DNA from: Coraliomargarita sp.
Lineage (GTDB): Bacteria; Verrucomicrobiota; Verrucomicrobiia; Opitutales; Coraliomargaritaceae
Reading direction: 5' to 3'
Length of the DNA: 64,000 nucleotides
Assembly: GCA_965216325.1 (NCBI GenBank)
Contig: OZ244160.1
Coordinates: 864,001-928,000 of the forward strand
The translations under genes and the position numbers were made by a program. The notes under the pieces were generated by a model that worked only from the letters and a program-made list of their open reading frames with translations, was not told where the DNA came from and made no database searches. The number at the start of each line of letters is the position of its first letter. Position 1 is the first letter of the stretch. Shown piece after piece: positions 38,527 to 42,398 of this stretch.

Positions 38527-40170
38527 ATGACTGCTCCCACTAGACTTGATGTCGGCGAATCAGCGTTTCAGGAGCGTCCTGAGTTACAGAGTCATTTGGC
38601 GATCGAGAGCTTCGTTGCACTTGCACGTAAGCCGGGGCGTGTATTGGTGACGGATTGCACCCTACAGCGCCGAGAGATGAAGGCTGGCTTTTTGTTGGCA
38701 CTGGCGTGGATGCTGTCTCGCTTGATCTTGCAGAAGACCGAGAAGCAACGAGTGGGCATTGTGTTTCCTCCGGGGATCGGTGGTTACATTGCCAACCTCG
38801 CAGTCGTCCTCGCGGGCAAGGTGCCGGTTAATTTGAATTTTACGCTTGGCCGGGCCAGTGCGGAGGCGTGCTTGCGCAAGTCCGACATTGATTGCTTGCT
38901 GACCGCACAGGCGGTGAAAGCAAAGTTGCCGAATTTTCCATGGCCCGAGTCTGGCTTGATCGATGTTGTGCTTGAGTTGCAGGCCATTTCGAAGCCGAAG
39001 ACGATTGCGCTGCTTGTGGCAATCTACGCGCTGCCGGCTAAGTTGTTGGCCAAGTTACTCAAGGTTCCGAGCCAAGGTGATCGAACAGAAGCCGGTTTGC
39101 TCTTTACGAGTGGCAGCTCCGGCGAGCCCAAAGGGGTGGTGCTCACACACCGCAATATCTTGGGGAATTGCATGCAAATTGATGCCTCCGGCCTGTTGCC
39201 TGCCGATCAGAAGATCATCGCGAACCTCCCGATTTTCCATAGCTTCGGCTTCACGGTTACGCTCTGGTATCCACTGCTACGCGGCTGCGGAGTGGTCTCC
39301 CTTCCGTCGCCTTTGGAGGTTAAGAAGATCGCCGATACGATTGAAGCGGAAGGTGCCTCTGTCTTGGTAGGCACTCCAACCTTCTTTAAGCCCTATTTGA
39401 AGCGCATTGCGCCCGAGAAGTTGAAGAGCTTGCGCTATGTGATCGCTGGAGCAGAGAAGACCCCGGATGGCTTTGCAGATCATTGGGAGCAAACCTTTGG
39501 TAGCACTTATTTGGAGGGCTATGGACTCACTGAAACCTCCCCCGTGGTGAGTGTGAATCTTCCAACCGCACCTAAAGAAGGAGACTATCCCGGTGATCCC
39601 GATGTGGGGAATCGCCGTGGTTCAGTGGGACGTCTGATGCCTGGGCAGACGGCCCGTATTCTGAATCCGGATACACTCGAAGATTGGCCGATTGACGCAG
39701 TTGGGGTGTTGGCTGTCAAAGGGCCGAATGTTTTCGGCGGATATTTAGATGAACCCGAGCGCACGGCAGAGGTCATGGATGGTGAATGGTTCATTACCGG
39801 TGACTTGGCACGTATCGATGACGATGGCTTTATTTACATCGAGGGGCGCTTGTCACGTTTCTCCAAGATTGCTGGAGAGATGGTGCCGCACGGCACGGTT
39901 GAGGAGTGCTTGAATCGTGCTTTTAATCTACTGGATGCTGAAGTGCCGATGCTGGCTGTTGCCGGGCGTCCCGACGAGTCGAAGGGCGAGGCTCTGGTAT
40001 TGTTGACTGCGATTGATCTCGAATTGGATCAGGTGCGCGAGAAGCTGGCAGCCGAGGGCCTGAGCAATCTCTGGATTCCCAAAGAAATTAAACGCGTAGA
40101 AGCCATTCCGACGCTGGCGACTGGTAAGCTCGATCTAAGAGCGATTCAGGTTGCTGCGCTTGAGGGGTAA
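38527..40170 (+). CDS. AMP-binding acyl-ACP synthetase (Aas C-terminal-like)
   Basis: [38 protein letters not shown]. Confidence 0.9.
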
Positions 40171-40227
40171 ATTCGTAGATGACATGGGCGTTTATCAGGA
40201 GCACGGAAGTGCTATGATGATAAACTT

Positions 40228-41316
40228 ATGCAAAACCCCACATCATCTACACGGACAACTAAGAACGCACTGGGCACAGTAATCAAGCTTGGCATTGACG
40301 TGCATGCGAGCACCTACGTGGTGGTCATGAAGATCGATAGCAGCGCCCCTTCACGCGCGAAGCGCATGAAGCCTGATATCTTCCTTCGATGGATTAAGCA
40401 GCTGAGCACTCAGTGCGAGCAGTTGCAAAGTTGCTACGAGGCCGGTCCTTTTGGTTACAGCCTGCACCGCAAGCTCAAGGCGATGGGCGTGAACAACCAC
40501 GTAATCCGCCCGATCAACTGGGACACTCATGGTAAGAAGGTAAAGACCGACGCGCGTGATGCGTTGCAAATGGTCTTGAGTCTGGACGGCTATCTGCGGG
40601 GCAATGACCGCAGCTTCAGTGTCGTGCGTGTGCCCAGCGAGCAAGAAGAGCGTCACCGCAGCCTAACCCGGCAGCGTGAAAGCTTCGTCAAAGAACGTGG
40701 CCGTGCGGCCAAGCGTGGTAAGAGTCTGGGACTGTATTACGATCAACCCTTACCCAGCGGCTGGTGGAAGCCGCGCAAATGGATGCAGCTACTCGAACAG
40801 CTCGACGATTTTTTGATCAGCCTGCTGGAGCCACTGCGGTTAAACTGCCTGCACTTTAGCGAGCTAATCAGCAACATCGAAGAACGTATCGAAGCGCTCG
40901 AGCCGGAACGGGTGCTGCCTAAAGGCATGGGGGTGGTCCTCTATGAACAGATCGAACGTGAGGTCTGCAACTGGAAGCGATTCAACAACCGCAAGGCGGT
41001 CAGTTCCTTTACCGGACTGTGCCCAAGCGAAGACACTAGTGCAAATCGGCGTTTCCAGGGCTCGATCAACAAACACGGCAGTCCCCGCCTGCGGCATATG
41101 CTACAAGAGTGCGCCTGGTTATTGATCCGGTGGAATCCCGGCTACAGTGGGGTGCGTAAATGGCAGGCCAAGCTCAGCGACGAGACCACCAGTAAGGCGA
41201 CCCGCAAGAAAATTGCCGTGGCCATCGCCCGGCAGTTCGCCGTGGACTGGTGGCGCATACGCACTGGCCAATGCAGTCTCGAAGACTTCGGACTGATAAG
41301 CAGACAAAACCCATAA
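40228..41316 (+). CDS. IS110 family DEDD recombinase/transposase
   Basis: LGIDVH, YEAG and KTDARDA (DEDD); GLCPSEDTSA (catalytic Ser region); AVAIARQ. Confidence 0.95.
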   Translation: MQNPTSSTRTTKNALGTVIKLGIDVHASTYVVVMKIDSSAPSRAKRMKPDIFLRWIKQLSTQCEQLQSCYEAGPFGYSLHRKLKAMGVNNHVIRPINWDTHGKKVKTDARDALQMVLSLDGYLRGNDRSFSVVRVPSEQEERHRSLTRQRESFVKERGRAAKRGKSLGLYYDQPLPSGWWKPRKWMQLLEQLDDFLISLLEPLRLNCLHFSELISNIEERIEALEPERVLPKGMGVVLYEQIEREVCNWKRFNNRKAVSSFTGLCPSEDTSANRRFQGSINKHGSPRLRHMLQECAWLLIRWNPGYSGVRKWQAKLSDETTSKATRKKIAVAIARQFAVDWWRIRTGQCSLEDFGLISRQNP

Positions 41317-41374
41317 GTCCGAACCAACGCTAAAGGCCTTCACCCTCTGATTTTAACGTTCTTTTGCAGTTTTC

Positions 41375-41540
41375 CTTTGTGCGGAGTGAGTCTGACCAAG
41401 CCCCTGTTGCCAACACAACGATTTTGTAGAATAGGCCACTTCGCCACCAAGCTTTTGAATGACCCAATGGATAGGTCATAGTGTGCTCTTCTGAGAAACA
41501 CTCAGAAACACGGATAGCAGGTTATCCCGGATCATCGAAA
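41375..41540 (+). ncRNA. putative bridge RNA (target-binding and donor-binding loops); transcript ends unknown
   Basis: Two stem/internal-loop/hairpin units (41381-41444, 41459-41535) whose loop strands match the target and the circle junction. Confidence 0.8.
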
Positions 41541-41759
41541 CTCCGAGGCCATGCGCGGTGGACGCTCAAAGACGATTGCAATCAAAACAAACCACTTATC
41601 TTATGTAAAAACACTCACACGCTTCTACACTCTTGACAGAAACGAACATAGCAGGGGCTTTGCTCGCCGTTTAGACAAGCTCAAGGCCCTGAGACTGTCG
41701 AGGGGCGGAGCCCTTCAATAGCATGTGCGCATCAGGTGCGGGTGGCGCAAGCACCACCC

Positions 41760-42398
41760 CTATGCCTTCACCTTAAACAAGGTGCCGCCTAGGCTACGGG
41801 GCTTCTGCTCGGAGGTGGCGGTGCCTTCGTCGCTGATCAGTTGGCCGTCTTCAAAGTAGCCGGGCTCTTTTCGCCAGTGCTTTTCGAGTTCGTCGTAGAG
41901 GTCGAGTAGCTCGTCGAGTTCGGTCACGCGGAATTCGATAGTTTTGGCATGTGTGGCGATCGGGTATTCTTTCATCACGACGTCGCCGGTGATGGTTTCG
42001 GTGATGCCGCGGGCTTTGTCGGCCATGGCTTGCACGCCGGGGACGTTCGCTGCACTGCCCGTTGGGATACCCGTCGTCGCTGTTGTAACGTTGCTCACTG
42101 CAGCGGCGTATTCGCCAGGCATCAGAGGGCGGGAGTAGTAGATGCGCAGTAGCGCATTGGCGTCAGTCATGACATTCACTTCAACGACTCGAAAGCCAGT
42201 GGTAATGTATTCCTGCTTAGAGATGGAGCGGAGCATGTTTTCACGTGCGAAGTAAGCTCGGGTTTCGCCCGGAAATTCGATGCCGAAGAGCTGCTTGTTA
42301 CGAATTGCGTTGGTGTCGACAGTGACTGCGCCTGCAGTGCTGAGGGCAGACAGTCCAAGTAGGAACAAGGGGGTAAATAGTTTGGTTTTAAGAAACAT
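41760..42398 (-). CDS. secreted hypothetical protein
   Basis: Signal peptide MFLKTKLFTPLFLLGLSALSTAGA. Confidence 0.8.
   Translation of the reverse strand: MFLKTKLFTPLFLLGLSALSTAGAVTVDTNAIRNKQLFGIEFPGETRAYFARENMLRSISKQEYITTGFRVVEVNVMTDANALLRIYYSRPLMPGEYAAAVSNVTTATTGIPTGSAANVPGVQAMADKARGITETITGDVVMKEYPIATHAKTIEFRVTELDELLDLYDELEKHWRKEPGYFEDGQLISDEGTATSEQKPRSLGGTLFKVKA

Follow-up and report, generated by a model that had tools for sequence, protein, structure and literature searches.

The 338-nt non-coding region downstream of the transposase gene of an insertion sequence in Coraliomargarita sp. probably encodes an RNA of the bridge RNA or seekRNA kind, with one module for the target DNA and a second one for the ends of the element itself. 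The unit at 41459-41535, which an initial annotation of the 64-kb window (the whole stretch of DNA analysed) had taken for a donor-binding loop, quite likely lies inside the second, donor-binding module of this RNA, which would derive from the 3′ non-coding region of an IS110-family element.

Bridge recombinases are under development as programmable genome-editing tools and, to our knowledge, almost everything known about their mechanism comes from IS621 and its close IS110-group relatives. In IS1111-type elements, according to the available text of a study of their seekRNAs, the target matches alone have been experimentally tested so far (PMC11187229). For the genome analysed here the finding is an ordinary one: an active insertion sequence in nine copies that lands in REP-like repeats. 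The part that deserves the attention of specialists is the comparative evidence for RNA-guided donor reading and for handshake bases in IS1111-type elements.

The insertion sequence and its landing site

The genome consists of one contig of 3.06 Mb and contains nine copies of the element, all 100% identical over 40179-41654; in run X1, the depth of the element-bearing contig was about 9 times that of its flanks, which confirms the copy number. We delimited the element (40179..41654, + strand, 1476 bp including one copy of the core) by comparing flanks and empty sites. The flanks of the nine copies diverge to the left of AG|ATGAC and to the right of ATAGCAG|GGGC; the left flank is YGTAG in eight of the nine and CGAAG in one, and the right flank is GGGCTT in all nine. 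Four unoccupied repeats read CGTAGGGGC, from which it follows that AG is a duplicated 2-nt core and that the element spans 40179-41654. These are the ends that the initial annotation had assumed; the nine copies share this interval, with AG at 40177-78 and 41653-54. The left AG (40177..40178, +) is the target's own core, retained at the left junction, as judged from the nine copies against the four empty sites; the right AG follows the right end ATAGC, the two together occupying 41648..41654 (+). A right end at 41651, obtained by aligning two TAG strings, was rejected, since the empty sites CGTAGGGGC carry no intervening CAG. The AG core at both junctions, the absence of terminal inverted repeats and the site-specific insertion are features of the IS110 family.

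The target of the element is a REP-like palindrome. Its right half beside the copy in the window (41655..41713, +) has thirteen short matches elsewhere in the genome, and the pattern GTAGGGGCNNTNC occurs at 54 genome sites, compared with 5 for a control pattern, many of them as inverted pairs 45-105 bp apart. This REP-like repeat family is the landing site of the element. In the window, the element begins 8 bp past the stop codon of an AMP-binding (acyl-CoA synthetase-like) gene at 38527-40170 on the same strand, and read-through from this gene could supply both the RNA and the transposase, as shown for IS621 in the available text of PMC13626964.

The transposase/recombinase gene (40228..41316, +) encodes a protein of 362 aa that matches Pfam Transposase_20 (PF02371; 52.9 bits, cutoff 21.3) and DEDD_Tnp_IS110 (PF01548; 29.2 bits, cutoff 29), so that it combines the DEDD RuvC-like N-terminal domain and the Transposase_20 C-terminal domain typical of the IS110 family. 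The NCBIfam model NF033542, "IS110 family RNA-guided transposase", scored 137.8 bits, just below its cutoff of 140. Residues 263-272 read GLCPSEDTSA, to be compared with the IS1111 motif GL-P----S(T)G; the final residue is A, not G, and G263, L264, P266 and S271 are invariant in six relatives. A search by sequence of solved structures with the transposase gave no match at E values up to 0.01. The non-coding DNA is unevenly distributed, with 338 nt downstream of the gene (41317-41654) and 49 nt upstream (40179-40227), as in the IS1111-type layout described in the available text of Siddiquee et al. (PMC11187229) and Durrant et al. (PMC11208160). The element is accordingly a member of the IS110 family with an IS1111-type layout.

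Both ends of such elements were compared for subterminal repeats. The left end ATGACAT (40179..40185, +) constitutes the right donor half, and its first 5 nt form a terminal extension outside the subterminal repeat. The repeats are weak in the window copy, whose subterminal arms align imperfectly (147 of 2000 shuffles reach the same score), but clear in relatives. Among 52 distinct end pairs, the window pair included, the longest exact shared run measures 5-11 nt in 51 and at least 7 nt in 26, compared with mostly 4-5 nt in shuffled arms; in most pairs, the run is a repeat of the ATGGG type that lies 5 nt in from the left end and 3 nt in from the right.

The ends also hold a possible junction promoter, with TTGACA (41633..41638, +; 16 nt to the end of the core) as a putative -35 element and TGACAT (40180..40185, +) as a putative -10 element. 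Joining 41654 to 40179 would place a 17-nt spacer between them, and TTGAC is retained in the right ends of relatives. This arrangement suggests a promoter of the type known for joined ends in the family. In the linear element, a scan for sigma-70-like promoters found no complete site, against 0.9 expected in shuffles. The contigs of four sequencing runs contained no joint between 41654 and 40179; rare circles would escape notice in contigs. A clade of relatives with ATAAC left ends would gain a better -10 element, TAACAT, at the joined ends.

A conserved RNA region and its probable target-binding module

In order to compare the non-coding region across the family, we used 20 relatives from genomes (Opitutales and Puniceicoccaceae of the Verrucomicrobiota, and one Acidobacteriota bin) and further relatives from metagenomes, of which 80 were kept out of 510 confirmed. 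The RNA region was aligned with MAFFT, which is not structure-aware, as 72 distinct sequences, and it is conserved across these relatives at 42-73% protein identity. RNAalifold predicted 20 pairs from the 72 sequences, 16 of them with double-sided changes, as for a conserved structure; the pairs cover the apical hairpin of the first module and both the 7-pair closing stem and the upper hairpin of the second. A column-by-column scan for pairs in the MAFFT alignment was discarded as too noisy, given an alignment that ignores structure.

The first module, which would bind the target (41382..41444, +), comprises two guides and an apical hairpin. It is closed by an outer stem (41382-89/41437-44, +) and an inner stem (41390-93/41433-36, +), and the apical hairpin (41406-09/41416-19, +) covaries in RNAalifold. 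The 5′ guide AAGCCCCT (41398-41405, +) is the reverse complement of the core and right flank (41653-60), and the 3′ guide TTTTGTAG (41422-29, +) has the same sequence as the left flank and core of three of the copies (L006-L008), so that the two matches address both strands and share the core. Along the RNA, the match to the top strand comes 5′ of the match to the bottom strand, as described for IS1111-type seekRNAs in the available text of PMC11187229 and opposite to the arrangement in IS621. Both guides vary with the flanks in relatives, for example in L057, L064, L081 and the pair L088/L121; this covariation with the target was judged by eye and is uncounted.

The two bases that follow the core in the 3′ strand of this module (41430-41431) tend to be the same as the two that open the left end, again by eye and uncounted. 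Such matches are TT in L089, AA in L098 and AT in many loci, including the Synoicihabitans copies; L034 and L025 are further examples. By eye only, these bases tend toward a second handshake-like relation.

The probable donor-binding module and its candidate guides

In the form shared by the family, the second module (41444..41561, +) appears as a three-way junction. Its closing stem CCACC/GGTGG (41444-48/41557-61, +) is made of pairs with 1 to 33 double-sided changes each. The pairs of the upper hairpin (41481..41511, +) covary as well: at alignment columns 161/186, 40 sequences have GC and 31 have AU, and at columns 160/187, 58 have UA and 14 have CG. The third helix is a 3′ hairpin, CCCGGA / TCCG-A-GG (41526..41548, +; stem 41526-31/41542-48). 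When the 42 nt after the guide strand were folded for each distinct sequence, a hairpin was found at the same place with quite different stem sequences, with exceptions, uncounted, that include L102 and L109. The conserved closing stem, the upper hairpin and the 3′ hairpin of variable stem sequence together indicate a three-way junction, and Durrant et al. note three-way junctions for many IS1111 orthologues (PMC11208160, available text).

This fold retains only some of the helices that had been drawn for the unit. The strings TTCTGAG/CTCAGAA (41489-95/41501-07) and GTGT/ACAC (41481-84/41508-11) are present, and the hairpin that they form is the covarying upper hairpin. The proposed outermost stem, ATGACCC/GGATCAT, has to be given up, as it competes with the 3′ hairpin, which covaries across the family. 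The proposed inner stem GGATA/TATCC is not conserved; over 80 loci, all five pairs can form in only 5, four of five in 22 and at most three in 53, and the stem may be real in the clade of the window element only. Placing the unit at 41459-41535 was right in so far as this interval falls within the donor-binding module, but the bounds are too narrow, with the closing stem outside them. For 41444-41561, the calculated energy is -21.7 kcal/mol for the family fold and -28.8 kcal/mol for the family fold with an added local hairpin, compared with -17.8 kcal/mol for the fold first drawn, -21.07 kcal/mol for that fold with the closing stem added, and -35.5 kcal/mol for the minimum free energy.

The claim that the unit is the donor-binding part of a bridge RNA or seekRNA is supported, and its 3′ strand reads the right end and core in a match that is conserved and covaries in relatives. 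The further claim that both loops share one geometry also holds. In both modules, the 5′ strand is complementary to the transposase-sense strand to the right of the core, and the 3′ strand is identical to the transposase-sense strand to the left of the core and through it. This strand order is the one reported for IS1111-type seekRNAs in the available text of PMC11187229.

The strings on which the donor reading was based were found where they had been located: ATAGCAG at 41514-20 and 41648-54, GTCAT at 41475-79 and ATGAC at 40179-83. The candidate right-end guide ATAGCAG (41514..41520, +) equals the right end and core (41648-54) and, as RNA, would base-pair with the minus strand at that site. 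When the integrated right junction is taken for comparison, the identity extends to 8 nt, ATAGCAGG (41514-21 = 41648-55), and this 8-mer occurs just twice in the window. We estimated the role of chance from 20000 shuffles of the 324-nt non-coding region, in which the 7-mer appeared in 1.8% and the 8-mer in 0.36%, so the right-end match is more than chance. ATAGCAG itself has four copies in the window, three of them within the element. The third of these, at 40337-40343 inside the transposase gene, was considered and is probably due to chance, being absent in the seven relatives checked, where the motif occurs only in the RNA and, at most, at the end of the element as well.

In relatives, the strand between the upper and 3′ hairpins reads CGGATAGCAGG nearly throughout, and the right end reads CCCATAGCAG. 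Among 80 parsed loci (L063 was dropped because of a parsing error), 70 had both features, and in 68 of these the RNA 7-mer equals the element's own right end, as ATAGCAG in 64 and ATAGGAG in 4. ATAGGAG is the sole matched variant, and all four loci that carry it in the RNA have it at the right end. Three of them (L034, L096 and L098) form one clade; the fourth, L088, stands apart on the tree, and its sister L121 has C at both places, which indicates two separate compensatory C-to-G changes. The two discordant loci are L027 and L028, and L026, whose right end was missed by the pattern, disagrees as well; the reading frames of L026 and L027 are broken and that of L028 is not. Six of the seven guide positions are invariant, and these positions therefore carry identity and no covariation. 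With 68 concordant loci and two compensatory changes, the comparison gives good support to a guide that reads the left donor half, which is the element's right end, through the core.

The base that follows this guide, G41521 (+), matches the first base of the right flank of the target (41655) and not the left end of the element. The equivalent base and the flank are concordant in 66 of 70 loci. Four of the concordant loci, at three places in the tree, have a base other than G (C/C in L064, C/C in L034 and L096, and T/T in L035); the disagreements are L082, L089, L099 and L123. In IS621, according to the available text of PMC11208158 and PMC13626964, once the strands have been exchanged, bases beside the core-pairing guides form pairs with the opposite DNA partner, and they determine which way the reaction runs. 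By analogy, this handshake logic seems to hold at 41521 too.

Some copies showed unusual features. A Candidatus Synoicihabitans bin contains many copies with broken reading frames (L026, L027, L032 and L033), and in L027 a short stretch between the RNA and the right end is triplicated in tandem. The right junction of L047 is irregular, with the right end and flank twice in tandem, and those of L082 and L099 read ATAGCAGCAGG, as though one CAG were repeated. These three junctions may be products of off-register recombination.

A different explanation of the shared ATAGCAG is that the protein recognises it as a motif in both the RNA and the DNA end, or that the RNA copy is an internal alternative right end, with RNA-DNA pairing playing no part. 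The near invariance of both motifs across the family speaks for it; in addition, ISPpu9 makes several circles by way of repeated end boxes (PMC12288879, available text) and a short seekRNA is sufficient for ISEc11 (PMC11187229, available text). We nevertheless consider this explanation improbable. Two separate C-to-G changes occurred at both places with no obvious need for a change in the protein, the next base tracks the target flank, which is not expected of an invariable protein site, and the motif is placed as a guide would be, unpaired and flanked by two covarying helices. Moreover, none of the 23 genome matches to the element region in total is a truncated copy ending at 41520, as an alternative right end would lead one to expect. 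Pairing of the RNA with the right end is thus retained as the preferred explanation.

The folding energy of the RNA region is unremarkable. The z-score of the whole region was +0.86 and that of 41455-41540 was -1.64, with 14 of 200 shuffles folding equally well, and no Rfam family was matched in 39800-42000, the one sub-threshold match, to a snoRNA, lying outside the element. These values would suit a transposase gene that simply ends in a structured 3′ untranslated region or a terminator, the matches to the DNA being coincidental. Such a coincidence is very improbable in view of the chance level of the 8-nt identity given above, the conservation and covariation of the right-end match over 70 loci, and a first module that matches both strands of the target and changes along with it; nor did we find a terminator-like site in 41317-41654.

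The left end is a more difficult case. The candidate guide GTCAT (41475..41479, +) lies in the 5′ strand of the junction, and in a wider register, 41473-79, six of seven bases are complementary to 40179-85. In the initial annotation, GTCAT had been put forward as the left donor match. It does pair at five of five positions with ATGAC in the window element, but by eye the count ranges from two to five of five in relatives; there is one clear compensatory position. Within the RNA itself, AUGACC at 41459-64 is a second sequence to which GTCAT is complementary. In shuffles, GTCAT turned up anywhere in the region in 27% and within the 32-nt strand in 2.8%, and with the former figure the 5-nt match alone is not beyond chance.

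It is possible, though somewhat doubtful, that GTCAT guides no DNA at all and forms the 3′ half of a local hairpin with AUGACC, its left-end match being a by-product and the protein reading the left end through the subterminal repeat. In the minimum-energy fold, GUCAU indeed pairs with AUGACC (41459-64 with 41474-79), and the fold that includes this hairpin is more stable than the fold first drawn (-28.8 versus -17.8 kcal/mol). By eye, related lineages retain an altered upstream partner, namely GTGAC or ATGGC with GTCAT, GTGA with TCAC in L054 and GACA with TGTC in L028. Also by eye, no more than two or three of five positions remain complementary to the left end in entire clades, among them the L030 group, L051 and L056, and the chance level of the 5-mer points the same way.

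Against a hairpin as the only role of the strand stands the complementarity counted in register. Over 29 distinct RNA/left-end combinations, 138 of 203 positions (68%) are Watson-Crick pairs, compared with 10-36% in shifted registers; the register was fixed by the window element and the rows are related, so that 68% is not a probability. The compensatory position is C-G with ATGAC ends and U-A with ATAAC ends, following the change of the left end. Out of seven positions, the window element matches at 6 (5 contiguous), the Synoicihabitans type at all 7, the large ATAAC-end clade at 4 to 6, the L030 group at 4, and L051 and L056 at 3. The ATAAC-end clade keeps its matches while lacking the upstream partner segment. 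Between guide and hairpin, the readings of the GUCAU strand are about even, and a guide to the left end is partly supported by these comparisons. The RNA carries a sense copy of the left end (ATGAC, within 41459-64) that is able to pair with the candidate left-end guide, and this copy may mask the guide until the protein opens it.

A proposed mechanism and comparison with known systems

We propose that the element uses the mechanism of IS621 with the order of the guide strands mirrored. Transcription in the direction of the transposase gene, by way of read-through or from a promoter created by joining of the ends, would yield the RNA, which would be bound by the DEDD recombinase. As the comparison of relatives suggests, the first module would pair with both strands of the REP-like target around the AG core, and the unpaired 3′ strand AUAGCAG of the second module would pair with the minus strand of the right end and core, the next base matching the target flank in the fashion of a handshake guide. 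The 5′ strand GUCAU may pair with the plus strand of the left end (40179-83), a step for which the support is partial. Between them, the two modules would keep donor and target in place while strands are exchanged at the AG/CT core. In ISEc11, according to the available text of PMC11187229, a short seekRNA of 82 nt with target matches only is sufficient for movement; elements of the IS1111 type may therefore be able to do without a donor module, which would then be helpful rather than essential.

A wider reading has chances that we put slightly short of even: under it, IS1111-type elements would have, in the long form of their seekRNA, a genuinely bispecific bridge RNA, in which a three-way-junction donor module reads the right end through the core along with one handshake base, and donor guidance and handshake logic would be ancestral to the IS110 and IS1111 layouts despite the mirrored order. 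The clade supplies natural covariation, both between the RNA and the right end and between the neighbouring base and the target flank, so that donor reading by the RNA could be put to a direct test with an enzyme of only 362 aa and an RNA about 180 nt long.

The element shares with IS621 (Durrant et al. 2024, PMC11208160; Hiraizumi et al. 2024, PMC11208158; available text of both) what appears to be a single RNA with a target part and a donor part. There as here, each part has two guide strands for opposite DNA strands that share a 2-nt core (CT, or AG when read on the other strand), a base beside a core-pairing guide matches the other DNA partner in the way of a handshake guide (PMC11208158), and the recombinase is a DEDD enzyme with a Transposase_20 domain. 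The differences lie in the position of the RNA, downstream of the gene here and upstream in IS621; in the mirrored strand order, the 5′ strand here being complementary to the transposase-sense strand; and in the donor nucleotides, which here would stand in a three-way junction and not in a simple internal loop. The present element is known from sequence comparison, and its protein has no solved relative by sequence.

The ISPpu9 and ISPpu10 elements of Pseudomonas putida, as described in the available text of PMC12288879, insert into REP sequences at an invariant AG found at both ends, and their circles arise by recombination at AG. ISPpu9 differs in belonging to the IS110 group and in having an upstream bridge RNA, extra end boxes and an associated small-RNA gene, none of which was seen here.

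There is also a resemblance to the IS1111-type seekRNAs of ISEc11, ISPa11 and ISKpn4 (Siddiquee et al. 2024, PMC11187229, available text). There too, the non-coding region follows the gene, and the match to the top strand precedes, and at the insertion point overlaps, that to the bottom strand. The ends of those elements have subterminal repeats with short terminal extensions, which are weak in the window copy and clear in its relatives, and a junction promoter is expected; ISPa11 likewise targets REP sequences. The transposase differs from those of IS1111 elements, quoted at 330-350 aa, in its length of 362 aa, and its best tblastn identity to plasmid-borne relatives is below 32%. By these comparisons, we are dealing with a known kind of system in a new, divergent clade that extends through the Verrucomicrobiota and soil and aquatic metagenomes. 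In the seekRNAs of that study, as far as its available text goes, only target matches are given and the role of the long form (145-170 nt) is left open, whereas in the present family the second half of what would be the long form matches the element's own ends, with covariation. Predicted donor guides of IS1111 elements are drawn, according to its legend, in Extended Data Fig. 10c of PMC11208160. To such RNA-guided donor recognition in IS1111-type elements, hitherto only predicted, the present family adds comparative support.
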